A DNA stretch of 29,501 bases, taken from the NCBI GenBank assembly GCA_034530875.2, contig JAVRCJ020000062.1, forward strand, positions 1 through 29,501. Direction: 5' to 3'. The DNA comes from Nostoc sp. DedSLP01. GTDB lineage: Bacteria; Cyanobacteriota; Cyanobacteriia; Cyanobacteriales; Nostocaceae. This document shows, piece after piece, positions 3,231-26,467 of the stretch. The notes beneath the pieces are model-generated. The model was not told the origin of the DNA and ran no database searches. It saw only the letters and a program-made list of their open reading frames with translations. A program made the translations under genes and the position numbers. Numbering within the stretch: position 1 is the stretch's first letter; every line of letters begins with the position of its first letter.

Positions 3231-5855
3231 CTACAACCAATTACCAACTATAACGTAGGGTGCCCAGTACATCGGACGCTTATATTCAGGAGCTTCAAGT
3301 AATTTTAATTGAGCAAAGCGTAAAGCTTCTGCTGTAGTTTTACCAGTCACTAACTGGCGGTAAAATTCCTCAATAAATAAAGCTGTAGAGTTATCGCCAA
3401 TTTGCCACAGGGAGGCTAAAGTACTCCGCGCACCAGCACGCAAAGCCACCCCAGCTAATCCCAATGCAGCTCGGTTATCTCCTGCTGCTGTTTCGCAAGC
3501 GCTCAAAACAAGTAATTCAACTGGTTCTGTTAGTTTTTGCTCTCTACTTTTAAGCAAACTATCTAATTCACTCACATTGATGCGTCCATCAGCTGCTAGG
3601 ATAAAAGTGTCTTTTGCTTTAGAGCTAAATTGCCCGTGAGTTGCCAAGTGAACAACTTTAAAAGGTTGAGCGTTGATGGTTTTTCCTAAAGTCGTACTGG
3701 TAAAATTTTTATCCAATAATGTAGTTGTCGATACCCCGGATTCCTGAATTAATTTCAGTTCAACCTTAACGTAGGGAAGCGCTGCAAACTTTTCATTTTT
3801 GGGTGGTTGCGATAGTCCTCCAGCAAGGGCATTTAATTTTTTCTGTCCTAGAGATTTGGGAGTAAATAGTTGCAGTCCGGGGCTAATAACTACAGAATAT
3901 TTTTGGACTAAATACTCTCTGCCATCATACAATGCAGACATCGGGATATTTCGCAGCAACCCATCTGGAATAAAGACTAGAGTATTAACTTTACTATTTT
4001 TAAGGTCTATTTCAACTGGTTTAATTAACCAGTTATAAAGCTGTTGAGAAACTGCTTGAAATTTCTGATTAGCATCAGGTTCGACTATTGTCTCTCGTAT
4101 TTTTGTAATAACTTGCTCTAATTGCTGACGGTTGACTTGAGAAGTTTTATGAATCAACGGTTGCTTGGGAAGTTTGATAATAATTTCTAAATAATTATCT
4201 AGGATAATCGGGTAGAAAATAGCAGTATTCGGGTTGTCGCGGTCTACTACTTTGTCTAGAACCACAAATTGGTTACTTAAGCAAGCTTCTCGAAAAAAAT
4301 TGTCGAGTTCTGCAACTTGCAAAGCTTCTATTCGCTGACGTGCTTTATCTAAATTAGGTTTTCCTTGTCCTTTCTCTTGTAAAATCAACTCTACAGACTG
4401 CCGATAAAGAGGTTCTATACGATCGCGAAAATTGAACTGTACGTCTCGATTAACCGCAACTAAATCGCTGCGAAGAGACTGAAGAGTTGATACAGCAGCA
4501 TCATAAGCAGATATGGCGGCTTCGATATTTCCCTGTGCTTTGAGTAAGCGTCCTAACTGCCACTCAAGGCGATAAGCTATATCTGAGGCATCGATTTTTT
4601 GCGCTAGAAACAACGCTTGCTGAGTCAAATCCTGTGCTTCTTGCAATTGTTGGTTCTGCTCGTAAACTTCTCCCAAGCTGCCCAGTGCATAAGATTCGGC
4701 ACGTTCATCACCGATAATTTTGGCTTGGTGAACGCTAGTTGCCAGAATCTCTGCAATGTCTTTTTTGTTACCAATTGTGGTTAGAGTCTGAGCAAAATTG
4801 ATTCGTGCATAAATACCAGCTTGATTGGTAGGCAGATTAGGAAATTGAGATTGAATTGTGGGTATTAATAACTTTGCTTCAGTGATGCGTTCGTTTTCGA
4901 CTAGCAAACTCAGCTGATTAATCAGAGCTTGAACTTTGGCTAGAGGGTTTGGTGCAATTTTGGCAGCATTTTCATAATGAGCGATCGCATCTTTAATATT
5001 ACTTAACGACCTAGCAGTATTACCGAGGCTAAATTCCGTCAAACTAATTTCTAAAGGCAGTTGCAGACGTTGAGCGATTTCTAAGCTTTGTTGTAAGTTT
5101 TTCTGGGATAACTCTAGTTCGCCTAATTGTTGTAAGACATTGCCAAGCGATCGCAAAGCTGTTACTTTTACAGGTGAGTCAGGTTGGGAACTTAATTGTT
5201 GGGATACTTTATTCAATATATCTAAGCTACGACGGTAAAAACCAGCAACTCGTAGCGCTTGTGCTTGGTTAACACGGCTGCGCGTTACTCCAGCATTGTC
5301 ACCTAATTTCTTCCAGATTTGCTCTGCTTGTTGTGATGTTTTTACAGATGCATCAGTTTGTCCGTCTGCTAATTGCAATTCGCCCTGAATGTTTAGAGTT
5401 TGTGCAAGAATTTCTAACAATTCAGATTTGGGATTGTTGACATTTAACTTTTGATTTATCTCATCCCAACCAAGCAAATTTAAGCTATTGTCAATAGTTG
5501 CATAAGCTTCTTTCCAGGAGCCGAGTTGCTGGTATACAAGACAGAGGTTAGTCAGCGCTGCGGCTTGTGCAAGGTTATTGCTTTCTCGTTGATAAATACG
5601 GACAGCTTGTTGTAGAACATTTACTGCTTCAGTAAAGCGTCCAGCTTGATAAAGTGCTTCTCCTTGCTCAATAAGTTGCTGTGGTGTTGTAGCTGGAGGT
5701 TTATTTGTTTGGATGTGAAACCCGTTTGATGAATTTGTCTGGATTTGTTTAGCAAATGTGCTAGGGATAAGAGTCAGGAAAATAGCAAGGGTAAATAGGA
5801 CTACGGGAGTTACCGCAAATCTAATTACTTGCTTTGGCAGCTGAAGTTTTGCCAT
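3231..5855 (-). CDS. TPR-repeat CHAT-domain (caspase-like) protein with N-terminal signal peptide
   Basis: Hydrophobic N-terminus ending STFA, helical TPR-like repeats, then CHAT motifs LVFIPDG, HLATHG, LVLSACET, ASLW and YWAPYVIVGNWL. RBS GGAGG lies upstream and the start overlaps the upstream gene by 35 bp. Confidence 0.93.
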   Translation of the reverse strand: MAKLQLPKQVIRFAVTPVVLFTLAIFLTLIPSTFAKQIQTNSSNGFHIQTNKPPATTPQQLIEQGEALYQAGRFTEAVNVLQQAVRIYQRESNNLAQAAALTNLCLVYQQLGSWKEAYATIDNSLNLLGWDEINQKLNVNNPKSELLEILAQTLNIQGELQLADGQTDASVKTSQQAEQIWKKLGDNAGVTRSRVNQAQALRVAGFYRRSLDILNKVSQQLSSQPDSPVKVTALRSLGNVLQQLGELELSQKNLQQSLEIAQRLQLPLEISLTEFSLGNTARSLSNIKDAIAHYENAAKIAPNPLAKVQALINQLSLLVENERITEAKLLIPTIQSQFPNLPTNQAGIYARINFAQTLTTIGNKKDIAEILATSVHQAKIIGDERAESYALGSLGEVYEQNQQLQEAQDLTQQALFLAQKIDASDIAYRLEWQLGRLLKAQGNIEAAISAYDAAVSTLQSLRSDLVAVNRDVQFNFRDRIEPLYRQSVELILQEKGQGKPNLDKARQRIEALQVAELDNFFREACLSNQFVVLDKVVDRDNPNTAIFYPIILDNYLEIIIKLPKQPLIHKTSQVNRQQLEQVITKIRETIVEPDANQKFQAVSQQLYNWLIKPVEIDLKNSKVNTLVFIPDGLLRNIPMSALYDGREYLVQKYSVVISPGLQLFTPKSLGQKKLNALAGGLSQPPKNEKFAALPYVKVELKLIQESGVSTTTLLDKNFTSTTLGKTINAQPFKVVHLATHGQFSSKAKDTFILAADGRINVSELDSLLKSREQKLTEPVELLVLSACETAAGDNRAALGLAGVALRAGARSTLASLWQIGDNSTALFIEEFYRQLVTGKTTAEALRFAQLKLLEAPEYKRPMYWAPYVIVGNWL

Positions 5856-8502
5856 ATTTCACACCTCCCTGAGATACAGGACAGTCAGCAGGTGTTTGCC
5901 AAGGGCTGTGGGGGTTGAGTTGAGGAACTTGTGCTACTAGTTCTATGTTTCCCTTGCGATCGATAACCCAGCCAGAAGCTTCCACAATTGGGATTGTAGC
6001 AGCAATAGAAGTAGCTGAAACTTCTGTTGGTTGTGGTACAGGCGTTATGTTTGCCAAGTTTTCTGATTTTGGTCTTAATTTTACCCACACAGATACAGTA
6101 CTTGAATCTTGTAACGGTTCAGTGGGACTCATGGGTAGTCCGCCGCGTCCTGTTGCCACAAATGTATTTTGGAATTGCCGAGTTCCAGGCGTGCAGGCGG
6201 TGGAAATTTGGTTAGAAGCATCAACTAGATTAATTGGGAGTTCGACTAAGCCCTGAGTGGGGTCTAAATCAGGTAGAGTAATTTCTATATTTCCGATTAA
6301 ATCAGGTGTTGCTCCTTTGGCGGTAATATCACTATTTGGAGAAGGTTCTTTTCTAGACTGAATACCAAAGATCCCTGCAATATTTTTGATAATGATATTT
6401 CCACCACGGAAATTAGCAGAATCTGCTCTAATATCGCTATTTTCTAATGGAACAGCGATGATGAAACCATTTTTAGCATCAATGGTAATATTGCCGCCAC
6501 TAATATTGTCTCCACTAGCGTTAGTGGTGATACTACTACCACGACGCAGTAGCAATAGAGGTGAATTAACAATGATATTTCCCCCTCCGCCAGTAGTATT
6601 AGCATTAATTTCGCCGGCGTTATTCAACACGATAGAGTTAGCATTTACAGTTATGTCACCTGCCTTACCTTTGGCATCAAATGTGCTAGCACTAACATTT
6701 GCCCCATCTCGAATTAGTAATTCACGAGTGTTTATCCTCAAGTCTCCTCCATCACCTGTACTGCCTCGGTCGGCGGCAGCAGACAAAAAGCTAATAAAGC
6801 GACCATCACTGGAACGACCAATCACTTGTACACTATCAGCAGTGATAGCCAAATTCCCCCCCTTACCTGCACCAAATGTGGCAGTACTAACATTTGCCCC
6901 ATCTCGAATTAGTAATTCACGAGTGTTTATCCTTAAGTCTCCTCCATCGCCTGTACTTTTCCCAGCTTGAGCAGACAAGATACTGAAGTTACCAATCACT
7001 TGTACACTATCAGCAGTAATAGCTAAATTCCCCCCCTTAGCTGCACCAAATGTGGCAGTACTAACAAATGTCCCATCTCGAATTAGTAATTCACGAGTGT
7101 TAATCGTTAAGTCACCCGCATTGCCTCTACCTACAGATTGAGCAACCAAGTTGCTGAATCTACCATCACTGGAGCGACCAACCACTTGTACGCTATCAGC
7201 AGTAACAGCCAAATTCCCTCCCTTACCTGCACCAAATGTGGCAGTACTAACAAATCCCCCATCTCGAATTAGTAACTCACGAGTGTTAATCGTCAAGTTG
7301 CCTGCATTGCCTATATCTTGAGATTGAGCTCCCAAGCTACTCGATCTACTAGCACTGGAGCGACCAACCACTTGTACGCTATCAGCAGTGACAGCCAAAT
7401 TCCCCCCCTGACCTGCACCAAATGTGGTAGCACTTACCTGTGCTCCATCTCGAATTAGGAATTCACGAGTGTTAATTGTCAAGTTACCTGCATTTCCAGT
7501 TGCATTTGGGTAAACTTGAGCAGACAAGTCACTGTATCGACCACTTGCATTTACCGACTCAGTAGCATTCACTAGCAAATTTCCCCCCTGTTTTGTCCCT
7601 AGAGTACTTGTCTCGATCTGAGAACCATTTGTAAGGGTGACACGTTTGCCTTGCAGTTGAATATCACCACCACCTTCCCCGCTTGCATCCACGGTTGCCT
7701 GTTGGGATAATTGAATATTTCCAAAACTTTGCACGCCACTATAACCCAAAGCAAAACCTTTGCTAGTCGGTGTGAGGCTAACTAAACCATTTCCGGCGAC
7801 AGAGCCTAATTCTATCTTTCCACCAGCAGTTTTCAGTGTTGCCCCTTCTAAATTAATATCTCCACCGACTAAAGCTAAAGTTCGATTGGGTCGCACTCGC
7901 AATGCATCTTGTGTATCAATGATGGGAGAATTAAAATCTCTTACTCCCTGACCATTACCCTGTACCTGAATCAAACCAGGATTCGCTCCAAATTGCAAAC
8001 CAATCGGCACGCTAATAGTTAATAAAGGTGTTGGTTGCGGTTTTTTGGCACTAAATTCCAAACCATCCGCAAATTTCATCACGTCGGCAGATGTGGCAAA
8101 AAAAGAACCGCCAATATCTAATCGAGCATTCTGACCAAATATAATACCGTTAGGATTAATCAAAAACAGATTCGCTGCGTTAGCACGAATTAACCCATCA
8201 ATATTAGAAATAGAATTACCCGTTACCCGACTAATAATATTTTGAATATCTGCGGCATTTTTAAACAAAGCCGTGCTGTTAGTAGGGACAGAAAATTCGG
8301 AAAAGCTGTGGAACAGATTACCCCCTCTGATGGTTCCACCCTCAATAATGGTGGTATTGCCGTCTAATTTCACATTGGAATTATTTGGCAGAGTGCCGTC
8401 TGGGGTGATTTGAGCAACTGAGCTATTTGTATATAAGGTAACTGCATTAATAATGGCAACTCCTAGACCTTGTAACCAGTTTGGCGCAGTTTTAAAAGAC
8501 AT
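5821..8502 (-). CDS. Filamentous haemagglutinin N-terminal-domain exoprotein (TpsA-like) #1
   Basis: Signal peptide (SVA|QITPD), TPS motifs NLFHSFSEF, SRVTG and LINPNG, five ~60-aa beta-helix repeats (INTRELLIRDG), and a C-terminal TGRGGLP...IVEASGW domain. Confidence 0.93.
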   Translation of the reverse strand: MSFKTAPNWLQGLGVAIINAVTLYTNSSVAQITPDGTLPNNSNVKLDGNTTIIEGGTIRGGNLFHSFSEFSVPTNSTALFKNAADIQNIISRVTGNSISNIDGLIRANAANLFLINPNGIIFGQNARLDIGGSFFATSADVMKFADGLEFSAKKPQPTPLLTISVPIGLQFGANPGLIQVQGNGQGVRDFNSPIIDTQDALRVRPNRTLALVGGDINLEGATLKTAGGKIELGSVAGNGLVSLTPTSKGFALGYSGVQSFGNIQLSQQATVDASGEGGGDIQLQGKRVTLTNGSQIETSTLGTKQGGNLLVNATESVNASGRYSDLSAQVYPNATGNAGNLTINTREFLIRDGAQVSATTFGAGQGGNLAVTADSVQVVGRSSASRSSSLGAQSQDIGNAGNLTINTRELLIRDGGFVSTATFGAGKGGNLAVTADSVQVVGRSSDGRFSNLVAQSVGRGNAGDLTINTRELLIRDGTFVSTATFGAAKGGNLAITADSVQVIGNFSILSAQAGKSTGDGGDLRINTRELLIRDGANVSTATFGAGKGGNLAITADSVQVIGRSSDGRFISFLSAAADRGSTGDGGDLRINTRELLIRDGANVSASTFDAKGKAGDITVNANSIVLNNAGEINANTTGGGGNIIVNSPLLLLRRGSSITTNASGDNISGGNITIDAKNGFIIAVPLENSDIRADSANFRGGNIIIKNIAGIFGIQSRKEPSPNSDITAKGATPDLIGNIEITLPDLDPTQGLVELPINLVDASNQISTACTPGTRQFQNTFVATGRGGLPMSPTEPLQDSSTVSVWVKLRPKSENLANITPVPQPTEVSATSIAATIPIVEASGWVIDRKGNIELVAQVPQLNPHSPWQTPADCPVSQGGVKYGKTSAAKASN

Positions 8503-8735: not shown

Positions 8736-8908
8736 CCTGTAAGTGTCAGGACAATGAACTTATGCACAACAGACGATATTAGCAAATTGGCACTGCTAAA
8801 TCAAGTGAATAAACCAGAGCAAGGGTTTGAGCGTTTGATAATTGAGGCAATTTTTTCCTCAATATCCTTATGCAACAAGGGTTTCACAAATTACGTGCGT
8901 TTGCCTTC

Positions 8909-9170
8909 GTGAATAAACTTATCTCACTGCTACTAATTAACAATCAGAAGGCAAAGCTAAAAAATCTCTGATTCGGGGTCGTGAATAAAATTATCTCACT
9001 GCTACCAATTAACAATCAGAAGGCAAAGCTAAAAAACTTCTGATTCGGGGTCGTGAATAAACCAATCTCACTGCTACCAATTAACAATCAGAAGGCAAAG
9101 CTAAAAAACTTCTGATTCGGGGTCGTGAATAAACTTATCTCACTGCTACCAATTAAGAATTAGAAGGCAA
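8909..9170 (+). repeat. Tandem 72-bp repeat array A (~3.6 copies), putative promoter plus hairpin units
   Basis: Units start at 8909, 8981, 9053 and 9125: GTGAATAAACTTATCTCACTGCTACCAATTAACAATCAGAAGGCAAAGCTAAAAAACTTCTGATTCGGGGTC. AATCAGAAG/CTTCTGATT forms a 9-bp stem. Confidence 0.92.
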
Positions 9171-9228
9171 AACCAAACTAGCGATCGCCTTCAGTTCAAG
9201 TTCAAACTTGAAATTTCGGAGATGTCTA

Positions 9229-9591
9229 ATGTCTAACATCAACAACTACGGAGTAGATATGAACGAGAAAACTTTAACAGAATTGAACTTCAGCGCAGTG
9301 AAGGAACTTAACGATGAGGTTGCTGCTACTTGTAGTGGAGGTAATGCACAGTTATTCCGGGGTGCTAACTTTCAGGGAGGTGGTATAACGTTTACTGGCA
9401 GCGATCGCAACCTAGCTAATAACAATTTCAACGACGCCACCTCATCTATTGTTATTACAGGAAATCAAAGATGGAGGTTTTATAAAAATACAAACTTTAG
9501 AGGTCCATCTATAACTTTAGGACCAGGACGATACCGTAGAGTTGCTGGAGGAGTAAACGATTCAATTAGTTCTCTCAAACGCTTATCATAG
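9229..9591 (+). CDS. Double-glycine-leader protein with single beta/gamma-crystallin domain #1
   Basis: Leader ends ELNDEVAATCSGG. The 82-aa mature part has two Greek-key motifs (LFRGANFQG...FNDATSSIVI and WRFYKNTNFRG...NDSISSLK). GGAG precedes the ATG at 9229 and the N-terminus matches the paralogues. Confidence 0.88.
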   Translation: MSNINNYGVDMNEKTLTELNFSAVKELNDEVAATCSGGNAQLFRGANFQGGGITFTGSDRNLANNNFNDATSSIVITGNQRWRFYKNTNFRGPSITLGPGRYRRVAGGVNDSISSLKRLS

Positions 9592-9635
9592 ATTTGACTT
9601 CTGTGTATCCGTTTTAGTGACTTTGGTTAGATAGT

Positions 9636-9677
9636 AAAATAGCCTCAGAGTATTCATCCATTTCTGAGGCTATTTTT
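9636..9677 (+). terminator. Intrinsic terminator
   Basis: 14-bp stem AAAATAGCCTCAGA / TCTGAGGCTATTTT ending in a T run, about 45 bp after the stop. Confidence 0.8.
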
Positions 9678-9885
9678 CTATTTCATGCCTCTGTTAAAAC
9701 TTCTCTCATCCCCTCTCTAATTTGCAACAGAGATTCTGCAATTAGAGTAAAAGTTTTTAGTATACATCATCCGAAATTTATATTACTTAATCGTCTATAT
9801 TGTCTCAAAGTCATTGTTGTCTAAGTGTCAGGATAATCAACTTATATACAACAGAAATATTAGCAAATTGGCACTGTTGAATCAA

Positions 9886-10071
9886 GTGAATAAACTTATC
9901 TCACTGCTACCAATTAATAATCAGAAGGTAAAGCTAAAAACCTCTGATTCTCAGCCGTGAATAAACTTATCTCACTGCTACCAATTAACAATTAGAAGGC
10001 AAAGCTAAAAAACCTCTGATTCCCAGCCGTGAATAAACCAATCTCACTGCTACCAATTAACAATTAGAAGG
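9886..10071 (+). repeat. Tandem 71-72-bp repeat array B (~2.6 copies)
   Basis: Units at 9886, 9957 and 10029 share the array A consensus, with linker TC(C/T)CAGCC. Confidence 0.92.
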
Positions 10072-10127
10072 AAGAAAACAAGCTTACTTTCAGTTCAAAC
10101 CCCAATCTAAAACTCAGGGGAAAAACA

Positions 10128-10487
10128 ATGTCTAACATCAAAAACTACGGAGTAGATATGAACAACAAGCAAATCAAAGACCTCTACAGCATCGAAGCTG
10201 TGCAAGACCTTGACCATGAAGCCGCTGCCACTATTAGTGGTGGTGCCTTAGACTTTTCCGACAAGAAGGATGGTGAAGGAAGGCGGCTAAATAATATCGC
10301 AAACGCACGACGCAGTTTAGGTAGCTTTAACAATAAAGCATCTTGGTACGAGGTGACGGGTAGAAAAGATTGGATTGTCTACAGTGGTGAGAATTTCACA
10401 GGTCAGAAGAGACGTCTCAAAGCAGGTTCAAAAGGTAACTTCACTGGTCCTTTTAACAACAACATCGCGTCTGTCAAACCTGCATAA
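10128..10487 (+). CDS. Double-glycine-leader protein with divergent beta/gamma-crystallin-like domain #2
   Basis: Leader ends DLDHEAAATISGG. Mature FNNKASWY...WIVYSGENFTG...FNNNIASVK aligns with the Greek-key pattern of #1. Confidence 0.82.
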   Translation: MSNIKNYGVDMNNKQIKDLYSIEAVQDLDHEAAATISGGALDFSDKKDGEGRRLNNIANARRSLGSFNNKASWYEVTGRKDWIVYSGENFTGQKRRLKAGSKGNFTGPFNNNIASVKPA

Positions 10488-10596
10488 TCAGCTCTGGTCT
10501 ATTTCATATCGTGTACTCGAATCCTTCAAAATCTCAAAGAGAAAAGAATGCCCTCACATAAGCTTTTAGCTGAGTAACATTCTTCTGTTGCAGTTC

Positions 10597-10629
10597 GTAG
10601 GGGCGAGGTCGTTTTCGCTCCTACTTTTT
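10597..10629 (+). terminator. Hairpin plus T tract (terminator, REP-like GTAG hairpin)
   Basis: GTAGGGGCGA...TCGCTCCTAC followed by TTTTT. Confidence 0.6.
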
Positions 10630-10676
10630 CATTCATATCAAGATAGCACAAATAAACATCAACACTGTTAACAGTT

Positions 10677-10752
10677 ATCAGAAGGCAAAGCTAAAAAACC
10701 TCTGATTCCCAGCTGAGAATAAACTTATCTCATTGCTACTAATTAACAATCA
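10677..10752 (+). repeat. Repeat array C (about one unit: hairpin half followed by promoter-like half)
   Basis: ATCAGAAGGCAAAGCTAAAAAACCTCTGATTCCCAGCTGAGAATAAACTTATCTCATTGCTACTAATTAACAATC. Confidence 0.88.
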
Positions 10753-10813
10753 CAAAGAAGAAAACAAGCTTATCTTCAGTTCAAACCCCAATCTAAAACT
10801 CAGGGGAAAAACA

Positions 10814-11170
10814 ATGTCTAACATCAATAACCACGGAGTCGATATGAACAACAAGCAAATCAAAGACATCTACAGCATCGATGTGCAAGACCTTGACTAT
10901 GAAGCCGCTGCCACTATTAGTGGTGGTGCCTTAAAGTTTTTCGACAAGAAGAATGGTATAGGAAGGAGGGTATTTTTTACCTTAAAAGTAGCAGCACGCA
11001 GTTTAGGCAACTTTAACAATAAAGCATCTTTTTACGTGTTGGGGGGTAGAGATGTGATTGTCTACACGGGTGAGAATTTCACAGGTCAATCAAGGCGTCT
11101 GAGAGCAGGTTCAAAAGGTAACTTTAATGGTCTTTTTAATAACAACATCGAGTCTTTTAAACCTGTTTGA
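10814..11170 (+). CDS. Double-glycine-leader protein with beta/gamma-crystallin-like domain #3 (close paralogue of #2)
   Basis: ATG at 10814 has the same 5' context as #2 (CTCAGGGGAAAAACAATG). Leader ends AATISGG; mature FNNKASFY...VYTGENFTG...NNNIESFK. Confidence 0.82.
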   Translation: MSNINNHGVDMNNKQIKDIYSIDVQDLDYEAAATISGGALKFFDKKNGIGRRVFFTLKVAARSLGNFNNKASFYVLGGRDVIVYTGENFTGQSRRLRAGSKGNFNGLFNNNIESFKPV

Positions 11171-11292: not shown

Positions 11293-11393
11293 AGAAATAG
11301 CACAAATAAACGTCAACGGTGTTAACAGTTATCAGGTAGGAAACGGACTCCTCTACCCCTTGTTAACTGCGGCTGTTACTGATTTTTTAAACA

Positions 11394-13592
11394 ATGAAAT
11401 ACCACAGCATATTGCAACACAGTGAAGAAGATTGTGGTGCAGCAAGCCTAGCCACAGTTTGCAAACACTACGGACGCACCTTTGCCCTCAATCGCGTGCG
11501 AGAAGCGGTAGGCACGGGAACGAGAGGAACTACACTACTAGGTTTAAGGCGGGGAGCAGAAACCCTGGGATTCCATGCTCGTCAAGTTCAAGCTACCCCA
11601 GAACTGTTTGAGAAATTAAATGAAGTCCCAATGCCCGCGATCGTTCACTGGAAAGGCTACCACTGGGTAGTATTATACGGGAAAAAGGGTAACAAATATG
11701 TCATCTCTGACCCTGCCTTCGGCATCTTATACCTCACCTCCCAGGAGTTAATCGCGGGTTGGAGTGATGGTGTGATGCTGCTGCTGATACCAGACGATAG
11801 CCGCTTCTACGAGCAAGGGGAAGATAAAATTGGCGGTTTTGGGCGCTTTATTGCCCGCGTTATGCCCTATCGCAATCTTTTGGTTCAGGCGATCGCTATT
11901 AACTTTGCGATCGGGCTGTTGTCCCTGGCTTCCCCTTTAATGATGCAACTCCTCACCGATGATGTGCTAGTGCGGGGAGATACCCAACTGCTAACAACGG
12001 TGGCAATTGGTGTGATTGCCATGAACCTAATTCAAAGTGCCATTGGTTTGGTACAATCTCACCTGATCGGTCATTTTGGTCAAAGGTTGCAATACGGGCT
12101 AATTCTAGAATACGGCCGAAAACTGTTGCGCTTACCCCTATCATATTTTGAAGCACGTCGCAGTGGAGAAGTCGTTAGCCGGATTGCTGACGTTCATACC
12201 ATCAATAATCTAGTCTCTCAAATTGTCCTTGGTTTACCCAGTCAATTTTTTGTGGCTCTGGTTTCCTTGGGTTTCATGCTCTTCTATAGTTGGCAACTGA
12301 CTCTCGCTTCCGTTGCTGCTTTTGTTATTGTCACAGGAGTCAACCTGCTTTTTCTTCCCGCCTTGCGCCAAAAAACCCGCAGCCTCATCGTTAAAGGTAC
12401 GGAAAATCAAGGCTTTTTAGTCGAAACCTTTCGCGGCGTTCAAGTCCTGAAAACCACCCAAGCGACTCCGCAAGCTTGGCAAGAATATCAAACAAATTTT
12501 GGTCGCCTTGCTAACTTAGACTGGACGACGATGAAGTTGGAGCTTTACAGCGGCACAGCCACTAGTATTCTTTCCAAATTGACGAGTATTGGCATACTCT
12601 GGTTAGGTTCTAGCTTAGTAATTAATCAGACATTATCTATCGGTCAACTGCTGGCGTACAGCGGTATGAGTGGTAGTTTTCTTGACTTTTTAGAGTCAGC
12701 AGTCGGGCTAATTGATGAATTTATCACTGCTCAAATTGTCGTTCAACGCTTGACAGAAGTGATAGATTCTACCCCAGAAGATGAAAATGACTTTAAAAAA
12801 CCTTGGGCAGAAATTCCTGGCAATGCAGATATTATTTGTTCTCAAATTAACTTCCACCATCCTGGTAGAACTGACCTGTTAGAAAATTTTTCTTTAACTA
12901 TCCCTGGTGGGAAAGTAATAGCCTTAATCGGTCAATCTGGCTGTGGCAAAAGTTCCCTTGGGAAATTAATTACTGGTTTATATCGCGTTCAATCTGGTAA
13001 CATTCGTTATGGTTTATACAACCAGCAAGATTTATCTTTAGAATGTTTGCGACAGCAAGTTGTATTAGTTCCCCAAGAACCTCATTTTTGGAGTCGTTCG
13101 ATTGTGGAAAATTTTCACTTCAGTTATCCCAACATTAGTTTTGAGGAAATAGTCAAAGCCTGTCAAATTGCTGGTGCAGATGAATTTATTAGTAAATTAC
13201 CTGATAAATATCAAACTGTTTTAGGCGAATTTGGTGCAAATATTTCTGGCGGACAAAGGCAGAGATTAGCTATAGCTAGAGCAATTGTAATTGACCCACC
13301 TGTATTAATTTTAGATGAATCTACAGGCGCTCTTGACCCGCTAAGTGAAACCCAAATTTTAGATAGATTACTTAATCACCGTCAAGACAAAACTACAATT
13401 ACGATCAGCCACCGTCCTCAAGTTATCAAACGGGCTGATTGGATTGTGTTGCTTGAAGATGGGTGCTTAAAAATTCAAGGAACTCCAGAAGAATTACGTC
13501 ATATCCCTGGAGAGCATTTAAGCTTTCTTGATGAAATTTATCCTTCTAATAATGGTAATGGCTTGAAATCTTCTTTACTTTTTCGGAATTAG
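11394..13592 (+). CDS. Peptidase C39-containing ABC transporter (PCAT, bacteriocin-type exporter)
   Basis: QHSEEDCGAA (catalytic Cys), HWKGYHWVV (His), a transmembrane domain, Walker A GQSGCGKS, signature ISGGQRQR and Walker B LILDES. Confidence 0.96.
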   Translation: MKYHSILQHSEEDCGAASLATVCKHYGRTFALNRVREAVGTGTRGTTLLGLRRGAETLGFHARQVQATPELFEKLNEVPMPAIVHWKGYHWVVLYGKKGNKYVISDPAFGILYLTSQELIAGWSDGVMLLLIPDDSRFYEQGEDKIGGFGRFIARVMPYRNLLVQAIAINFAIGLLSLASPLMMQLLTDDVLVRGDTQLLTTVAIGVIAMNLIQSAIGLVQSHLIGHFGQRLQYGLILEYGRKLLRLPLSYFEARRSGEVVSRIADVHTINNLVSQIVLGLPSQFFVALVSLGFMLFYSWQLTLASVAAFVIVTGVNLLFLPALRQKTRSLIVKGTENQGFLVETFRGVQVLKTTQATPQAWQEYQTNFGRLANLDWTTMKLELYSGTATSILSKLTSIGILWLGSSLVINQTLSIGQLLAYSGMSGSFLDFLESAVGLIDEFITAQIVVQRLTEVIDSTPEDENDFKKPWAEIPGNADIICSQINFHHPGRTDLLENFSLTIPGGKVIALIGQSGCGKSSLGKLITGLYRVQSGNIRYGLYNQQDLSLECLRQQVVLVPQEPHFWSRSIVENFHFSYPNISFEEIVKACQIAGADEFISKLPDKYQTVLGEFGANISGGQRQRLAIARAIVIDPPVLILDESTGALDPLSETQILDRLLNHRQDKTTITISHRPQVIKRADWIVLLEDGCLKIQGTPEELRHIPGEHLSFLDEIYPSNNGNGLKSSLLFRN

Positions 13593-13599
13593 TTAATGT

Positions 13600-13721
13600 T
13601 TATCAAAGAGAATTCAGAATGAATTTTGTACGACTGGCGGATAGTGAGCCTTGCCTCCGGCACGCCAAGGGCGAACGAGCGTCTTGATTCTGAATCCTGA
13701 ATTCTGTATTCTGTATTCTTC
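13600..13721. repeat. Nostoc-type heptamer-flanked dispersed element between PCAT and HlyD
   Basis: TTTATCAAAGAGAATTCAGAATG...TTCTGAATCCTGAATTCTGTATTCTGTATTCTTC. It shares a 20-bp core and the terminal TTATCAAA with 3156-3219 in inverted orientation. Confidence 0.65.
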
Positions 13722-13728
13722 AAAACTT

Positions 13729-15234
13729 ATGATTAGTAAGTCTCAAACAAATTTTTTACCCTTAGTTCAAGACAACGAGTTTCTTCCACCAATTAATCGT
13801 TGGACTACGTTTGGCGGACTATTTATCGTGTTTGCCTTGGCGTTATCTGTTCCTGTGGCTGCGGTTGCTAAATATAAAGTTACGGTGATTGGGCAAGCGG
13901 TTGTCCGTCCTGCGGGTGAATTGCCAATTGTACAGGCGGCGATAGAAGGACAAGTAATGCATATTTACGTCAAAGAAAATCAAACGCTGCAAAAAGGAGA
14001 TACGATCGCTACTATTGATGATTCTCGATTGCAAACCAAAAAAAACCAGCTGCAAACTAATATTCAACAAGCTAGGTTACAACTAATTCAAACCGTTCCC
14101 CAAATTAATGCGATCGATAGTCAAATTCGAGCCGAAAGCGATCGCACTAATCGGACTATCGCCTCTGCTAAAGCTGAATTGCAAGGACGCGATCGCGATT
14201 ATCAAGACAAAAAAATTACCACTATCACTGAACTTCAAGAAGCATCAGCCAACGTCAAAATGGCCCAAGAAGAATTATATGCAGGGCAAGCACAGTTACA
14301 ATCAGCATTAGCTAATCTCCACGCAACTGAGGCGGCTTTAGGAGCAGCAACATCAAAGCAGAGCCGATATGAAAGTGTTGCTAAACAAGGGGCATTATCC
14401 CGCGACCAACTAGAAGAAGTACAGCTGGCTGCCAAACAGCAACAACAAGCTGTAGAGGCGCAAAAAGCCACTTATAAAGCCCAAGAAAAAACAAATGAAC
14501 GGCTAAAACAAGCTGTTTTAGGGGCTATTGCTAAACGCTCGCGCACTCAAGCAGCTCTCAACCCAAGCAATGCAGAGGTAGCAATAGCGACTGAACGCAT
14601 TGCTCAAGAAAAAGCCGCTGGGGAAGTAAATAAAGCATCGTTAGAAAGAGAACTTCAAGCACTTATAAAACAGAAAATTGAAACCGAAAAACAATTAGAG
14701 CGCGATACTAGCGAATTCAAGCAAGCTGAAATTGACCTGAAGCAAACTACTATTACCGCTACAGCCGACGGGATTATTTCCAAACTAAATTTGAGAAACC
14801 CCGGTCAAACTCTCCGGGCTGGGGAGGAAGTTGTGCAAATTGTTCCTAGTCATGCACCTTTAGTTATCAAAGCAGCTGTCGGTTCTGAAGAAAAAGGTAA
14901 GATAAAAGTCGGTCAAAAGGTGCAAATGCGAGTTAGTGCTTGTCCTTATCCTGATTACGGTACTCTCAATGGCTTTGTCAAAGCGATTTCCCCGGATGCT
15001 GTTAATTCACCAAAAAAGGATGCAGATACGGATACGAACTCTACCCCAAAAGCAACTGCTGTAGGCGCTTTTTACGAAGTCACAATTGAACCAGAGAAAC
15101 TTGCTTTAGGTCGTAGCAGCACAAAGAAATGTCAAATTCAATTGGGTATGGATGGCAGAGTTGATATTATTACCCACGAAGAAACTGTACTGCAATTTGT
15201 ACTCCGCAAAGCCAAATTAATGACGGATTTTTAA
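13729..15234 (+). CDS. HlyD-family periplasmic adaptor (membrane fusion protein)
   Basis: One TM segment, lipoyl-like VKENQTLQKGD, a long coiled coil, ITATADGII, and ACPYPDYGTLNG. The ATG at 13729 is chosen because the upstream extension is repeat-derived. Confidence 0.94.
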   Translation: MISKSQTNFLPLVQDNEFLPPINRWTTFGGLFIVFALALSVPVAAVAKYKVTVIGQAVVRPAGELPIVQAAIEGQVMHIYVKENQTLQKGDTIATIDDSRLQTKKNQLQTNIQQARLQLIQTVPQINAIDSQIRAESDRTNRTIASAKAELQGRDRDYQDKKITTITELQEASANVKMAQEELYAGQAQLQSALANLHATEAALGAATSKQSRYESVAKQGALSRDQLEEVQLAAKQQQQAVEAQKATYKAQEKTNERLKQAVLGAIAKRSRTQAALNPSNAEVAIATERIAQEKAAGEVNKASLERELQALIKQKIETEKQLERDTSEFKQAEIDLKQTTITATADGIISKLNLRNPGQTLRAGEEVVQIVPSHAPLVIKAAVGSEEKGKIKVGQKVQMRVSACPYPDYGTLNGFVKAISPDAVNSPKKDADTDTNSTPKATAVGAFYEVTIEPEKLALGRSSTKKCQIQLGMDGRVDIITHEETVLQFVLRKAKLMTDF

Positions 15235-15239
15235 GATTC

Positions 15240-17645
15240 CTAACGATGTTGAATCAACATTACAACAACACCGCTTGCAACCACGGCAAAGGCAGAAGGA
15301 ATAAATGGCAACCATAGCCCTTGTTTTAAAAGGATGATGCTCCCAAAAGGAGCTGCCCAAAGAGCGATCGCACAAACTCCATATAAAATGATAGCGATCG
15401 CAAATATAGCGCATCCCTTATTAAGTAGTGAATGACGCACGCACCAAACAATCAAACCAGATACGCTCGACCATGCCCATATCCAAATAATATCAACCCA
15501 GAAAGGCAAAACCCCAAGAATTGGACGTTTGTCTAAAACTGCACTCAAAATTTGACTGACCATTTGCGCTTGTATAAATATGCCTGGTATTTCCTGGTAA
15601 GGTTGTTGTGCCGCTGAGTAGGGAGTTGACCAAGTATCGCTGATAGTGTTAGCTGTCACTCCTATGAGAACAACCTTATTTTTGAAAAAAGTATAGTTAA
15701 CCTTATTACTCAATACATCTGCTAAAGAAACTCTTTGGTAATCTGCATGACGGTAGTTGACAAGTATTTGAATTCCACCTAAATCAACTCTTTGTTGATA
15801 GCCACCACTGCGACCAGGCTTTAAGCGTTTAAATACTTTAGAACCAAATTGTATATAATCTTCATTTAAATTAGGTTGAATATTTTCGTAAAATAAATAA
15901 CGACCAGCTAATTGTAACGAGAGTGAGTAAGGCGTTGTACAAACAGACGAAGGCTCTTGTGCCATCATCATAATTTGGCGACGGACGATACCATCTGAGT
16001 CTTGAATTGCATCAGTAAAACCCTGACGTTCTATAGGGACTTCAAGAGGTGGTTTAACACCTTGGGGGTCGTGTTTGCGATCTCTGCCTTTACAGACAAC
16101 TACCACATTTTCTTTGCTCAGTTCAGTGGGGAGTTGTATCGGCTTTGATTCATTTGGAGGGTCAGTAAAATCTCTATAAATATCCAGTCCAATGACTCGC
16201 GGTTGATACTTTTGTAATTTGTTGAGTAATTGAGCTAACGTACTATCCGAAATAGATTTCACTCCTTTTGTCGTCTCTTGTCGGGATTGAATATCTTTTT
16301 CAGTAACTTCAACAACGAGCAATCTTGGATCTAAATCTTCCTTTGTCCGCAGGAGTAGCATTTGGTCAAAAGTTTGCAGCTCAGCTTTTTCAAAAATCCC
16401 CAAGTATCTCAGACCTATCGTTGAAAGAGTCACAATAGCAGTACTCAGCAGTACAGTCCAAAGTTTGTGCTTTCGAGTCGCAATTGTGCTTTTGGTCTTG
16501 GCGATTGAAATTCTGCTCTGAGTCGAAACCTCTCTGCGAGTCTTGGTGTCACCCGAACCACTGCGTAGTTCTTGCCAAGTAGTAGGAACAGTTGTAGGAT
16601 TTTGGCAGATAACTGGCAACCAACTAGCACAAGGAAAATCATTCTCCAATCCTTGAAGTCTTTCCCGCGCTTCTCGCACCGCCAGATAAAATGGCTTATT
16701 AAGAGCAAAAGCGACAAGAAAGTTTTTCAAAAACTCCTGTGCGACTAAATCTGACACCCCTTCCCGCATCACAATCATCTGGGGAATGTTCAAATCAGCC
16801 AAATTTCGTGCCAAACCAATGCCATCACAGGAGTTAAAAATTGCCAGTTTTAAACCGTGTGTAATTGCTGTTTTAAGTGCATTTTTAAATTGGTAAATTG
16901 TTAAACTTTCGCTTTGATTAATGTAAATTTCCCCTATCTCTCCATCTGCAATACTACCGCTATGTCCGGCAAAAAATAGAATATCCCAATTCTGATTCCA
17001 CAGTTGCTCGTCAAGTTCTTTTCGTGTAGGTTCGACAAGAAACGTAGTTTGAGTATCTGTTAAACTTTGCAACCAAGAACGGTCTTTATCAATATCAATA
17101 CCAAAACTGTTACCGAGAATTGCTAAAATCTTGACTTGAAGTGTAGTAGATTTTTGTACAACTTGAGGAGATGCATACTCATGATTGCTCAAAGCTAATT
17201 CTGCTTTCGGGTAATCTTCAAAAAAATTCCACAGATGCCAAGGTAACCGATGCAATAAAGATATATTTGTTTCAAAAATAACTCTAATTTCATCATCTCG
17301 GCTGAGTAGAGTTCTTAACTGTCGTTCAATATGTTGGAAGGATTCAGATTTTAACCAAGCATTGATATGTGTTTGTAACTGATGACATACTTCATCGAAA
17401 TCATTCACAGAAATATTGGTAATATCTTGTGAATGCACTTTTATCCGTTGATTGCTGCCCAGACGCTGATGGATAGCTTCGTAGAGTAATCTCCATCTTC
17501 TATAGAGTTCGGAAAGTTCTGGTATTGCTGGTAGACTCCCTATTATTTTAAATAATTGGTTATTGTGCCAAAGTTGAGCCGTGACAACAGGAAATCCTTG
17601 ATTTAAGTCTCCTCCTAACAAGCTGAAGATGACTAGCTGACTCAT
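15240..17645 (-). CDS. Membrane receptor: N-terminal CHAT domain, TM, CHASE2 sensor, 3 TM
   Basis: LPWHLW, FFAGHS and IFNSCDG (His/Cys dyad); TM LWTVLLSTAIVTLSTIGL; CHASE2 motifs DPRLLVVEV, PRVIGLDIYRD, DSDGIVRR, KVVLIG and PGIFIQAQMVSQIL; hydrophobic C-terminus. Confidence 0.9.
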   Translation of the reverse strand: MSQLVIFSLLGGDLNQGFPVVTAQLWHNNQLFKIIGSLPAIPELSELYRRWRLLYEAIHQRLGSNQRIKVHSQDITNISVNDFDEVCHQLQTHINAWLKSESFQHIERQLRTLLSRDDEIRVIFETNISLLHRLPWHLWNFFEDYPKAELALSNHEYASPQVVQKSTTLQVKILAILGNSFGIDIDKDRSWLQSLTDTQTTFLVEPTRKELDEQLWNQNWDILFFAGHSGSIADGEIGEIYINQSESLTIYQFKNALKTAITHGLKLAIFNSCDGIGLARNLADLNIPQMIVMREGVSDLVAQEFLKNFLVAFALNKPFYLAVREARERLQGLENDFPCASWLPVICQNPTTVPTTWQELRSGSGDTKTRREVSTQSRISIAKTKSTIATRKHKLWTVLLSTAIVTLSTIGLRYLGIFEKAELQTFDQMLLLRTKEDLDPRLLVVEVTEKDIQSRQETTKGVKSISDSTLAQLLNKLQKYQPRVIGLDIYRDFTDPPNESKPIQLPTELSKENVVVVCKGRDRKHDPQGVKPPLEVPIERQGFTDAIQDSDGIVRRQIMMMAQEPSSVCTTPYSLSLQLAGRYLFYENIQPNLNEDYIQFGSKVFKRLKPGRSGGYQQRVDLGGIQILVNYRHADYQRVSLADVLSNKVNYTFFKNKVVLIGVTANTISDTWSTPYSAAQQPYQEIPGIFIQAQMVSQILSAVLDKRPILGVLPFWVDIIWIWAWSSVSGLIVWCVRHSLLNKGCAIFAIAIILYGVCAIALWAAPFGSIILLKQGLWLPFIPSAFAVVASGVVVMLIQHR

Positions 17646-17663: not shown

Positions 17664-17700
17664 TAATGACCAATGACTAATGACTAATGACTAGTGACTA
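17664..17700. repeat. Short tandem heptamer repeat (STRR2-like), 5 copies
   Basis: TAATGAC CAATGAC TAATGAC TAATGAC TAGTGAC. Confidence 0.85.
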
Positions 17701-18879
17701 AATAACAAAATTTTCTGTTATCTGATAACTATCAAAAGTAATTTGGATGCTAAAACATTCTCCTATTTCTCCATCAAAGCGTTTCAATTGGATGTAGTTA
17801 TCTTGTTCTCTTGCTTGTACTTCCTGAATAATTTCCTCTGACTCTAAAACCAAAGCTAACTTGATATTAACAGGTAGATATTCTCCATTGGCAGGATGTA
17901 GTTGCACGCGAATACTAACTTGTTGGCTATCCTCTGGTATGAAGGCAACTAATAGCACCACTTTTTGAGACTCTATTTCTATTCCCAAATCAATCAGCTT
18001 GGCTCGTTTGATACTACCAAAACCTGACCCGGAGCTACTCCTGAAATTAAAAGCTAGACTGTTGGAATTGAGGGGCAAAAATGTTTCTACTGCTTCCCAA
18101 GCATTATCGTATATACCTTCTAGCCAACGACTTAGATTCACTCGCACTTGTAATGATTGTGGTTGCTGCCGTTGTTGGTACAAGCGTTGCCGCCACTGCT
18201 CATTCTCTAGTAACGATCCCCAAGTGCTAAATGGTACTGCCAATCTAGAGAAACGAAAAGAAGCATTGCCTAACTGTTGCACCAGATTTTCTGCTTGCTC
18301 GGTAGATAGTTGTGGTAATGGAGCTACAGCCGCTTTCATCTCTTCTGTTCTGCAAAATTGGTAGCTTAAAGAGAAAGCATTGAGGTCTTTTGTCAAATGC
18401 TGTGCATCTATACAATAAGTCTTATCCACTGAGTCATAGTGAGCCAGAGATTTTAGTTCTTTATGGGTTGTGTAACCCCAAATTCGTATCCACTCGCCAT
18501 CCGGTTTGACTTGCACCGCTAAATAGTAGTCTGCTGCCCAACTAGGAATATCTACCCATTCTTGAGGGACTTCTAACTCGCGATCGTCAATTGCTTCACT
18601 GGGAATCAACGCGACTCGCCTTCCCTCTAACAAAATTACTGTGCCATTGACAAATTCCCAAAAAGCTGGAGTACCAGGAAAACTGTACCAAACACTCGCT
18701 TTTGAAAAATCTTCAGTTGAGATCCAATCCAAGAAAGCATGGAGACAAATTTGATTTATGTAAGCGCACCAGCGACTACTAGGCGTGGCATAAACCTGGC
18801 TTTGCTGCCAGGATTGCGCCTGAATTGTTGATGATATTTCTAATAACCATTCTCTGGGATCTGCAAACGCGCAAGTCAT
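17698..18879 (-). CDS. DUF1822 family protein
   Basis: Motifs WEFVNGT, LIPSEAID, VPQEWVDIPSWAADYYLAVQV, IWGY, VNLSRWL and RAKLIDLG, ending ITENFVI. Confidence 0.85.
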   Translation of the reverse strand: MTCAFADPREWLLEISSTIQAQSWQQSQVYATPSSRWCAYINQICLHAFLDWISTEDFSKASVWYSFPGTPAFWEFVNGTVILLEGRRVALIPSEAIDDRELEVPQEWVDIPSWAADYYLAVQVKPDGEWIRIWGYTTHKELKSLAHYDSVDKTYCIDAQHLTKDLNAFSLSYQFCRTEEMKAAVAPLPQLSTEQAENLVQQLGNASFRFSRLAVPFSTWGSLLENEQWRQRLYQQRQQPQSLQVRVNLSRWLEGIYDNAWEAVETFLPLNSNSLAFNFRSSSGSGFGSIKRAKLIDLGIEIESQKVVLLVAFIPEDSQQVSIRVQLHPANGEYLPVNIKLALVLESEEIIQEVQAREQDNYIQLKRFDGEIGECFSIQITFDSYQITENFVI

Positions 18880-18906: not shown

Positions 18907-20094
18907 TTAGTTTATACCACCATACTGGTTTCTCAACCATTCTTCCAAAGCAAGACTCATATCTTTAATTTGGTTGGAATTAACAGAAATATTCAAATCT
19001 TGGCTCCACTTAAGGAGTGCTGCAAGTATAGATTCTCTACCTTTAACTAGTCTGCGAGACACTGTAGGCTGACTCATCTGCAACTGTTGCATAATCTGCT
19101 GCTGAGTGAGTCCTTGTTCGTAATAAAGCTTAAGTACTTCTTGGGATTGTACATCTAGGCTCTGTAAGGCTTTTAACAATACACCAGACATCTGAGATAT
19201 TTGGTTTTGTCGATTTTGGACATCCTCTTCGGCTATCATATTAGCCATTGGTTCCTCAGAGGATGGGTCTGGCAAATCAAACGTTACTGTCGTGCTATCA
19301 TTTTGCTCGAAAGCATTTAGAGATTTCACAGGTGGAAATAAATAAGCTCGCACGTAGAGAGCTGTCTGGGTTAACCACTGTTCAATTGTCTGGGTGTTGC
19401 GTGCGAGAGTAGGTTGAGTGATTTGGCTTTGGCGTTGGTGGTTGTATAGGTTGGCAATGGCTTCCCAAAGTTGACGATTCGGTTCTGGTAACTGAGAGTT
19501 ACCTCCTGGTTGGTTTTGGATGTACAGTTCCTTGAAACAAGTCCAAGCTAAACAATATTCAGCAATTGCACTTTGTGATAATCCAGCTTCACTAAGAGCT
19601 TCACTAAGCAGCTTTTTGCTCACTTTGCGTAACAATGCCCAATTGGTGCAAATATCAGCTTCCCTACGTTGACGTAAAATATCTTTCAGCCGACTGGACA
19701 TTGCCATGATGGCATAAGCTTTTAAGCTAGAAGATTTTTCTGGGTTGAAGTCTTTAAGAATTGTTTCAACTTCTGCGATCGCCATTTGGAAGTAGTCAGC
19801 GAGCATGTACTGGCTGAAATTAAATTTAGCAACTGTTTTTGAAGCAACCCAATAACATGGTTCTTGTAAATAAGCTAACAAATGCATTCTAGCAAGGTTA
19901 TCAAACCCAGAGCGCCATTGCTTGTACCAGTAAAGCGCCCAAAAGTTCTCTGATTTAAGTGCTGATGACGATCGCTCCAAGTGGTTTTGGATATTTCTAT
20001 ACAGTTTGCGATCGGTCAACCATTTGCTGAATCTGCCTCTTTCCAACTCCACGAATGTTGAAAACATATCCGTAATTTCTTGGCGAGGACGCAT
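18907..20094 (-). CDS. Sigma-70 family RNA polymerase sigma factor (cyanobacterial DUF1822-associated type)
   Basis: Region-2-like LADYFQMAI...FNPEKSSSLKAYA and region-4 HTH LKLYYEQGLTQQQIMQQLQMSQPTVSRRL. ATG at 20094 (MRPRQ). Confidence 0.88.
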   Translation of the reverse strand: MRPRQEITDMFSTFVELERGRFSKWLTDRKLYRNIQNHLERSSSALKSENFWALYWYKQWRSGFDNLARMHLLAYLQEPCYWVASKTVAKFNFSQYMLADYFQMAIAEVETILKDFNPEKSSSLKAYAIMAMSSRLKDILRQRREADICTNWALLRKVSKKLLSEALSEAGLSQSAIAEYCLAWTCFKELYIQNQPGGNSQLPEPNRQLWEAIANLYNHQRQSQITQPTLARNTQTIEQWLTQTALYVRAYLFPPVKSLNAFEQNDSTTVTFDLPDPSSEEPMANMIAEEDVQNRQNQISQMSGVLLKALQSLDVQSQEVLKLYYEQGLTQQQIMQQLQMSQPTVSRRLVKGRESILAALLKWSQDLNISVNSNQIKDMSLALEEWLRNQYGGIN

Positions 20095-26303: not shown

Positions 26304-26467
26304 TTTGCATCATGGCTCCTTTGCTGCCTTTAGCGTTATTTGCTTGTGTTTAGTGGTTGCACAACTTTTCGGGTTACATACAAGGTATATAGGAATCAAA
26401 CTCTAATGGTTACTGACTTATGACTGACTTGAGCGCGTAAAATTGAAATAGTTGCCAGCAATTAGCT

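Follow-up and report, generated by a model that had tools for sequence, protein, structure and literature searches.

Tandemly amplified 72-bp repeats as predicted cognate promoters of an uncharacterized sigma factor family in Nostocales

Introduction

In Nostoc PCC 7120 the NsiR1 array comprises 12 tandem copies, each giving a small RNA (sRNA) of ~60 nt from a DIF1 promoter under HetR, as set out in the accessible part of the published account (PMC9045159). EACC2-caspase(-CHASE2) systems with an extracytoplasmic function (ECF) sigma factor and DUF1822 have been described by Kaur et al. (2021), the accessible text of which proposes protease activation with the sigma factor as the final step controlling many genes (PMC8195603). 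Islands holding sigma, DUF1822 and caspase genes are common in filamentous cyanobacteria and, in the literature found, have been described from sequence only. The subject here is a 72-bp unit standing in tandem ahead of crystallin genes in an island of this kind in Nostoc sp. DedSLP01 (contig JAVRCJ020000062.1, positions 1-29,501, forward strand; genome 8.57 Mb), the whole 29,501-nucleotide stretch analyzed being referred to as the window.

A first-pass annotation of the window had proposed that each unit is a bipartite alternative-sigma promoter recognized by the 18907-20094 sigma factor. This prediction has strong support in sequence comparison and expression data, and the unit is likely to be the promoter of the island sigma factor, giving a predicted DNA read-out of the signaling island. 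The further reading favored here, with a probability of about two in three, is that the stacked copies all feed the mRNA as tandem cognate promoters of that sigma factor. What is new is the tandem amplification of promoters predicted to be cognate to an uncharacterized sigma family.

The 72-bp unit and its distribution

The observation that one repeat stands upstream of all three crystallin genes was borne out, with eight unit copies in three arrays starting at 8909, 8981, 9053 and 9125, at 9886, 9957 and 10029, and at 10715, and with Tandem Repeats Finder (TRF) reporting a period of 72 x 3.7 (8907-9171) and 72 x 2.6 (9886-10071). The lack of unique spacers also held, the copies lying head-to-tail and being 93-94% alike, and a CRISPR-like repeat-spacer array was rejected on these grounds. 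Scattering of the unit across the genome regardless of gene context, raised in the first-pass annotation, was checked and is not the case. The rest of the 8.57-Mb genome holds only four related copies, three on contig C60 at a locus with a crystallin gene and a broken C39 exporter and one on contig C40, where a sigma fragment with 69% identity to the window sigma factor lies nearby.

The array region was matched in 48 of 301 family genomes, and the exact pattern of the two boxes described below occurs in 117 stretches of the GTDB collection, of which 112 are titled as Nostocales, 2 have no label and 3 are unrelated. After removal of duplicates and of arrays cut at locus edges, 256 arrays were reduced to 147, mostly with periods of 70-77 bp and carrying one (62), two (43), three (20), four (14), five (5) or six (3) copies. 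A sense open reading frame (ORF) lies within 500 bp of 128 of the 147 arrays at a median of 72 nt, compared with 67 arrays and a median of 255 nt in the opposite direction. The supposed tie to crystallin genes did not survive this wider sample, since 80 of the 128 downstream ORFs are crystallins and 48 are others, among them exporters, hydrolases, GTPases and second sigma genes. The unit is therefore a feature of sigma70/DUF1822/CHAT-CHASE2 islands and not of crystallin genes. The motif also stands ahead of a second, distant sigma gene at two loci (L155:3592 and L163:2399), the former with its own DUF1822 gene, which suggests a sigma cascade.

A two-box motif with a predicted start

Comparison of 40 island loci (~727 kb) defined the conserved minimum of the unit. 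These loci consisted of 25 picked mainly by sigma match and 15 from element-positive genomes, one duplicate locus (L180) being dropped from the core-motif, sigma-tree and start-step counts. The pattern TGAATA-N15-17-ACHWAT gave 73 matches, against 5, 2, 1 and 2 for four control patterns (reversed, swapped and wrong-spacing). Of the 73, 72 were intergenic, all of these with a spacer of 15 or 16, and 68 were in sense and within 500 bp of an ORF. In islands with a sigma factor only 58-65% identical the unit is reduced to a single TGAATA-N15/16-ACCWAT without palindrome or hairpin, such diverged sites having the boxes alone in common and the spacer sequence being free. The sites have marks of an alternative sigma70-type promoter, namely two boxes at fixed spacing around a free spacer, intergenic, in sense and shortly 5' of genes. 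In the Nostoc sp. DedSLP01 genome the strict two-box pattern has 10 matches, all at the window, C60 and C40 loci, compared with one in a Markov-shuffled genome.

A pyrimidine-purine (Y-R) step is present 8 nt past the hexamer in 43 of 46 repeat-type sites, 16 of 23 diverged sites and 13 of 13 distinct sister sites (see below). This step places an 8-nt box, ACCWATWA, at -14 to -7, and a box of this kind at this position resembles the -10 boxes of sigma28 and sigma32. The predicted start in each unit is the A of C/T-AG; a start 3 nt earlier is a possible alternative, a Y-R step being present there in 10 of the 23 diverged sites. All units in the window lie on the plus strand. In array 1 (8909-9199; repeat family call and TRF) the four predicted promoter units have the -35 TGAATA at 8910, 8982, 9054 and 9126, the -10 ACC/TAAT at 8932, 9004, 9076 and 9148, and a +1, inferred from the Y-R step, at 8946, 9018, 9090 and 9162. 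The three units predicted in array 2 (9886-10098) would start at 9923, 9994 and 10066. The first half of the unit had been called nearly invariant, which is true of most copies but not of the single degenerate unit ahead of gene 3 (10715-10784; AGAATA, ACTAAT and C at +2; predicted +1 at 10752).

The link to the island sigma factor

The element was found in 39 of 44 genomes with a sigma factor at least 67% identical to that of the window, against 9 of 257 others in which matches were mostly tail-only or weak, and within the genus in all 15 sigma-positive genomes. Since linkage alone could explain this co-occurrence, paralogous sigma factors were tested. In a 42-row sigma tree the motif adjoins 21 of 29 members of one clade, none of 5 members of a sister clade with the same region-4 helix and none of 8 members of a distant clade with a different helix; a search of 9 loci of sigma factors with a different region-4 helix found no site. 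The window sigma factor is ~395 aa long, its model (predicted local distance difference test, pLDDT, 73; predicted template modeling score, pTM, 0.39) has its best fold matches among the group-3 sigma factors SigD, sigma32 and SigB, and a sequence search of PDB gave helix-turn-helix (HTH)-level matches only.

A second motif, TGCATA-N15-ACGTGT, is common to two cargo genes beside a paralogous sigma gene on contig C21 (genome G000; C21:87496 and 90011), the sigma factors of this paralogous clade having the helix QQYQVSR/QQYTISR. At C21 and at five further loci (L207-L211) the sister motif precedes secreted and RTX-like genes. A search of 151 genomes gave 12 matches in 9 genomes against 5 for the control, two of the 12 being the source sites, four one orthologous non-island site and two lone sites, and led to two islands in other genomes with a C21-type sigma factor and to one TpsA/CHAT locus. 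A de novo dyad search of the paralog islands produced mostly AT-rich noise from which only the C21 pair stood out, with no motif found for sigma factors C69, C7, L192, L193 and L194. Taken as a correlation only, the motif appears to follow the sigma clade and to change with the recognition helix. A sister-type site with a spacer of 16 also occurs in four related genomes (L212-L215) ~500-700 bp from an amine-oxidase-like gene and outside any island, where it is possibly a target in trans. The paralogous island of sigma factor L193, on a Nostoc plasmid (L193:11943-15777), has a lanthipeptide cluster of the LanM type in which a Nif11 precursor is divergent from the island sigma gene.

Expression in Nostoc punctiforme

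The island is carried in N. punctiforme by the plasmid pNPUN03 (123 kb), for which expression values are available in supplement 1 of Gonzalez et al. (2019; PMC6495340), the pNPUN03 rows being counted by hand and the tags matched via product and order. In the sigJ mutant only 5 of the 73 named pNPUN03 genes in these rows rise at least 8-fold between 0 and 1 h, namely CF051 (30 to 378), CF054 (47 to 413), CF055 (61 to 661), CF056 (42 to 475) and CF061 (1 to 47), and five predicted RNAs adjoining induced genes rise along with them (PMC6495340). In the same rows TpsA, CHAT, DUF1822 (CR058) and the island sigma gene (Npun_CR059) all rise less than 3-fold, with sigma going from 22 to 40 and TpsA from 31 to 29 (PMC6495340).

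In this one condition all five induced genes of the supplement are located behind motif sites, a pattern of co-regulation. Two-unit arrays precede CF054 and CF055. No repeat precedes CF051 or the small gene 5' of CF061, both of which were found on inspection to have minimal GTGAATA-N16-ACCTAT-N7-Y-R sites; these sites had not been used in deriving the motif and have a joint chance of ~4e-6. The strict pattern has exactly three matches on the 123-kb plasmid, one heading each induced region. On the plus strand of the plasmid (NC_010630.1) transcription is predicted to start at 52125, 63159, 63235, 63576, 63652 and 71739. No spike is listed in that 1-h sample for any of the 14 annotated sigma genes (PMC6495340), which points to post-translational activation of the sigma factor. 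A soil metatranscriptome (the sole public read set, with a 0.05 share), the contigs of which match little beyond the array and gene 2 (90-95% alike), was not used as evidence because contigs reveal neither strand nor starts.

The hairpin half

The second half of the unit had been described as a stem of AATCAGAAG and CTTCTGATT, which is present but perfect in only two of the five inner copies of the window, these folding at -4.0 to -9.2 kcal/mol. The gene-proximal copy does, as noted, lack the CTGATT arm, but its place is taken by a diverged arm, (G)CCTTC/CTTTC/TCTTC, with which another small stem is closed. The suggestion that the transcript of a unit begins with a hairpin was not upheld; the predicted start lies inside the 5' arm, so the transcript of an inner unit would not begin with the full hairpin. 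Across 140 distinct inner segments 96-100% pairing is kept in the outer 6 bp with loops of varying length, inner pairs are often broken and compensatory change is almost nil, such that this comparison showed no covariation; at distant sites, in islands with a diverged sigma factor, the hairpin is absent. Folding of the inner segment from the predicted +1 is no stronger than that of shuffled sequences (median -3.3 kcal/mol, z 0.35), and pairing begins at +2 in 67 of 129 proximal copies. On the simplest reading, read-through RNA would carry the hairpin as a weak leader stem, and the transcript of the proximal copy would have a stem that protects its 5' end.

The C/T variant is equally frequent in proximal (37/141) and inner (40/144) copies and fits a pyrimidine at -1. 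A G-U wobble was rejected as evidence for this second hairpin, C/T being equally common in copies without the CTGATT arm. The first hairpin (GTGA/TCAC) was likewise rejected as an RNA structure, its core pairs being invariant, its outer pairs breaking (12-85% paired) and distant sites being without it. A search of Rfam with the unit gave nothing above chance (best E 0.73). A likeness to the rrn boxA or the RfaH ops core was dropped, the conserved minimum being the two boxes and the ops-like part being lost in distant sites.

Function of the repeated copies

In the favored reading each 72-bp unit would be a complete promoter for the 18907-20094 sigma factor. Its elements would be a -35 TGAATA, 15-16 nt, an extended -10 ACCWATWA and, as the start, the A of C/T-AG, and tandem copies would supply each cargo gene with several start sites in series. 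RNA from upstream copies would run through the downstream copies into the gene, an AAUCAG/CUGAUU stem forming solely in this read-through RNA and a proximal GAAGG/CCUUC stem from +2 probably shielding the 5' end. DUF1822 probably holds the sigma factor, which the caspase-like CHAT proteins of the island would release after a signal. That more copies would give a higher amplitude of the secreted-cargo burst is the least supported step, and tuning of expression by copy number is plausible but unsupported.

Evidence on the inner copies comes from 35 pairs of equal-length adjacent inner copies, unequal-length pairs being dropped. Neighbors differ at 0 of 210 positions in the -35 and 3 of 210 in the -10, the box counts carrying a mild bias from copy detection that allowed 1 and 2 mismatches. 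In the spacer 27 of 210 positions differ, and in the linker 36 of 280. Boxes that stay intact while spacer and linker drift by ~13% suggest that selection acts on the inner copies, which would then be likely to fire.

Several points weigh against tandem promoters of the island sigma factor. Because motif and sigma gene travel in one island, linkage accounts for part of their co-occurrence; related genomes do not count as independent, and 15 of the 40 core-motif loci came from genomes previously known to carry the element. Degeneracy at the W and H positions of the -10 pattern was allowed only after inspection of the N. punctiforme sites, ACCTAT then being found in four other genomes, and 8 of the 29 clade members are without a site in a one-sided flanking stretch. 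A phylum-wide search with the minimal motif was near chance (28 matches against 19 for the control) and uninformative, and the fold model of the sigma factor is weak (pTM as above, template modeling score about 0.2). The +1 positions are predictions, the 'TSS' (transcription start site) given for CF054 in the supplement of PMC6495340 being the start codon. The N. punctiforme spike occurs in one condition, is not significant in the authors' wild-type-versus-sigJ test as given in the supplement (PMC6495340), and may rest on one replicate.

Alternative explanations

Other observations against the favored reading concern the copies themselves and would fit an explanation in which extra copies are near-neutral products of unequal crossing-over and one proximal sigma promoter works, copy number being irrelevant. 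Single-copy arrays make up 62 of the 147; identity is 0.89 within arrays against 0.79 between them, indicating homogenization; and a hairpin half without its boxes, or with other sequence in their place, stands 5' of 36 of the 147 arrays, outer copies thus often being truncated or decayed. In the N. punctiforme supplement no copy-number trend is seen, single-site units (378, 992) being expressed equally to two-unit genes (413, 661), a comparison that is between different genes and in which the 992 row was assigned by order only. Near-neutral copies would nevertheless not be expected to keep boxes intact between inner neighbors over a drifting spacer and linker, runs of at least two copies stand beside three separate sigma subclades, and at CF054 the distal copy is the better motif match. 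Such neutrality is considered unlikely, with selection on inner copies in series preferred.

An NsiR1-like arrangement, in which inner copies stop near the hairpin to give ~30-36-nt RNAs that regulate in trans or attenuate and the proximal copy alone makes mRNA, would account for the conservation of +1 to +32 above that of the spacer (27 of 567 differences in the loop, 9 of 210 in CTGATT), for the outer pairing maintained across loops of differing length and for a proximal copy that always differs in the hairpin part. Rockhopper 'predicted RNAs' lie just before CF054 and CF055 and are co-induced (227 and 367) in the supplement (PMC6495340), but a co-induced 'predicted RNA' listed there also precedes the repeat-less CF051 and these RNAs are equally likely to be 5' leaders. 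No U-tract and no terminator call was found in the units, and shuffle-level folding from the predicted +1, the lack of compensatory changes, a C/T variant as common in proximal as in inner copies and the lack of an Rfam match make short RNAs improbable. Even less credence attaches to the units as cooperative operator sites (GTGA-N11-TCAC or the AATCAG/CTGATT inverted repeat) for a factor acting with housekeeping sigma. GTGA and TCAC are paired in 94-98% of 194 distinct units, TCACTGCT is conserved like the boxes within arrays (4 of 280 differences), and the window has an 89-aa HTH gene and a truncated HetZ-related gene. Against this, co-induced and distant sites keep the two boxes without the palindrome, periods from 70 to 77 bp shift the helical phase, housekeeping-type promoters are scarce in a scan (3 found, 6.5 expected) and the motif changes with the sigma recognition helix. 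The cooperative-operator alternative of the first-pass annotation is accordingly disfavored, and a promoter read by the island sigma factor in each copy is retained.

Organization of the window

The three downstream genes encode double-glycine (GG)-leader beta/gamma-crystallin proteins (PF00030; E 2e-12, 0.03 and 2e-4) on the plus strand, gene 1 at 9229-9591 (120 aa, GG leader), gene 2 at 10128-10487 (119 aa) and gene 3 at 10814-11170 (118 aa). A terminator-like hairpin closes gene 1 (9637-9679, plus strand; -24.2 kcal/mol, z -6.9) and an intrinsic-terminator-like site closes gene 2 (10597-10624, plus strand), and as a result each gene needs its own promoter. The surrounding island holds genes for TpsA, TPR-CHAT, CHAT-CHASE2, DUF1822, a sigma70-family factor and ShlB. 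A C39-peptidase ABC exporter and HlyD adaptor follow on the plus strand (11394-15234), and on the minus strand are a CHAT (caspase-like)-CHASE2 membrane sensor (15240-17645), the DUF1822 protein, a candidate anti-sigma factor (17698-18879), the sigma70-family factor predicted to read the unit (18907-20094; region-4 helix SQPTVSRR) and, divergent from array 1, TpsA (TPS domain) and TPR-CHAT genes (3231-8502). This genome has four intact sigma genes of the sigma/DUF1822/caspase island type. The truncated HetZ-related protein 2 (25710-26737; 197 aa against a 367-position model) is divergent from the 89-aa HTH gene, and this pair sits between two TpsA genes, the upstream 300 bp of which are 97% identical. 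Another crystallin/C39 locus (G000, contig C85) has a different shared 69-bp upstream element (3880-3950 and 5335-5405) and not the 72-bp unit.

Upstream of array 1 a leader ending in a -35 stub (8740-8814, plus strand) has a second copy at 9822-9895 (89% identity over 75 nt). Without the stub this leader of 65 bp (8740-8805 and 9822-9885) is present 5' of the first unit at 46 of the 147 arrays and is a possible activator site. The stub at 8806, taken in the first-pass annotation for a remnant of the unit, is instead the left target-site duplication of an internally deleted miniature inverted-repeat transposable element (MITE) at 8815-8908, to which no strand is assigned, identified by comparison with full-length relatives (loci L002 and L026), which are ~130 bp long, have 12-bp terminal inverted repeats and show a 9-bp target duplication. 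The MITE inserted within the first -35 box, which was rebuilt by the target duplication; the insert pattern occurs at up to 20 of the 147 arrays (at least one of these being a further match within a locus already counted), and G000 C3:36910-36994 holds a related sequence. A variant head, AAATAAA-N9-TGTTAACAGT (10646-10680, with a palindromic core), is joined to an ordinary hairpin half ahead of gene 3 (10646-10714, plus strand), and a second such head with the palindromic core stands 5' of the C39 exporter (11300-11335, plus strand). In relatives the head is followed by 1-3 copies of TTATCAG, and it may represent a second type of promoter or a site for a factor.

Wider significance

A broader and at present doubtful proposal is that DUF1822-coupled sigma factors form a family of mutually orthogonal sigma/promoter pairs, for which two motifs are predicted here, serving as caspase-gated outputs in multicellular cyanobacteria, with the 72-bp promoter accordion of Nostocales as a heritable gain dial. 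If the accordion is real, any gene captured behind a unit would join the burst with its amplitude set by copy number. The promoter consensus, the named targets and the start positions predicted to the base in N. punctiforme, a genetically tractable species, offer a direct reporter for the signal and for the protease-to-sigma relay. Species differ in having one to six tandem copies of a whole promoter, and this natural amplification offers a clean way to test whether copy number tunes expression. In addition, clade-specific sigma/promoter pairs are possible orthogonal switches for cyanobacterial engineering.

Comparison with known systems

The sigma28 promoter is TAAA-N15-GCCGATAA and the sigma32 promoter TTGAAA-N13/14-CCCCATNT. 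Like these group-3 promoters, the unit is built of two boxes, its extended -10 being 8 nt long with CC..AT as the core at -14 to -7, and has a predicted Y-R start; its -35 and spacer differ from both. In the literature searched no known sigma factor has TGAATA-N15/16-ACCWAT and neither motif nor repeat is described, although subscription papers or unseen supplements may contain one.

The exporter side of the island, with a C39 ABC exporter, HlyD and GG-leader cargo, is like the double-glycine 'bacteriocin' clusters of Wang et al. (2011), the main text of which is without the words crystallin, sigma, promoter, CHAT and DUF928 (PMC3140520). The signaling side has the same gene set as the systems of Kaur et al. 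(2021), with a caspase/CHAT-CHASE2 sensor and adjacent sigma and DUF1822 genes; in the accessible text those systems are described without promoter, target gene or repeat, to which a predicted promoter, targets and a second clade motif are added here (PMC8195603). Unlike the ECF sigma factor named there (PMC8195603), the window sigma factor is ~395 aa with a modeled fold that appears closest to group-3 sigma factors. General domain scans of the window proteins turned up no EACC2 profile at the sensor N-terminus, none of them being aimed at EACC2.

The gene hetF, which we take to be a CHAT-family gene, provides a further point of comparison, and the window CHAT-CHASE2 protein weakly matches NF045509. 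The NsiR1 array adjoins hetF according to the accessible account (PMC9045159), and the window arrays likewise lie near a CHAT-family gene. Both are tandem direct repeats in a heterocystous cyanobacterium, with a specialized promoter for each repeat that is here a predicted one (PMC9045159). Relative to NsiR1 as described there, the units are 72 bp long, number 1-6 copies, have another two-box motif and no terminator call, share no sequence or Rfam similarity, and stand in sense ahead of protein genes at many loci. The 72-bp arrays are thus arranged like the NsiR1 array but likely drive mRNAs.

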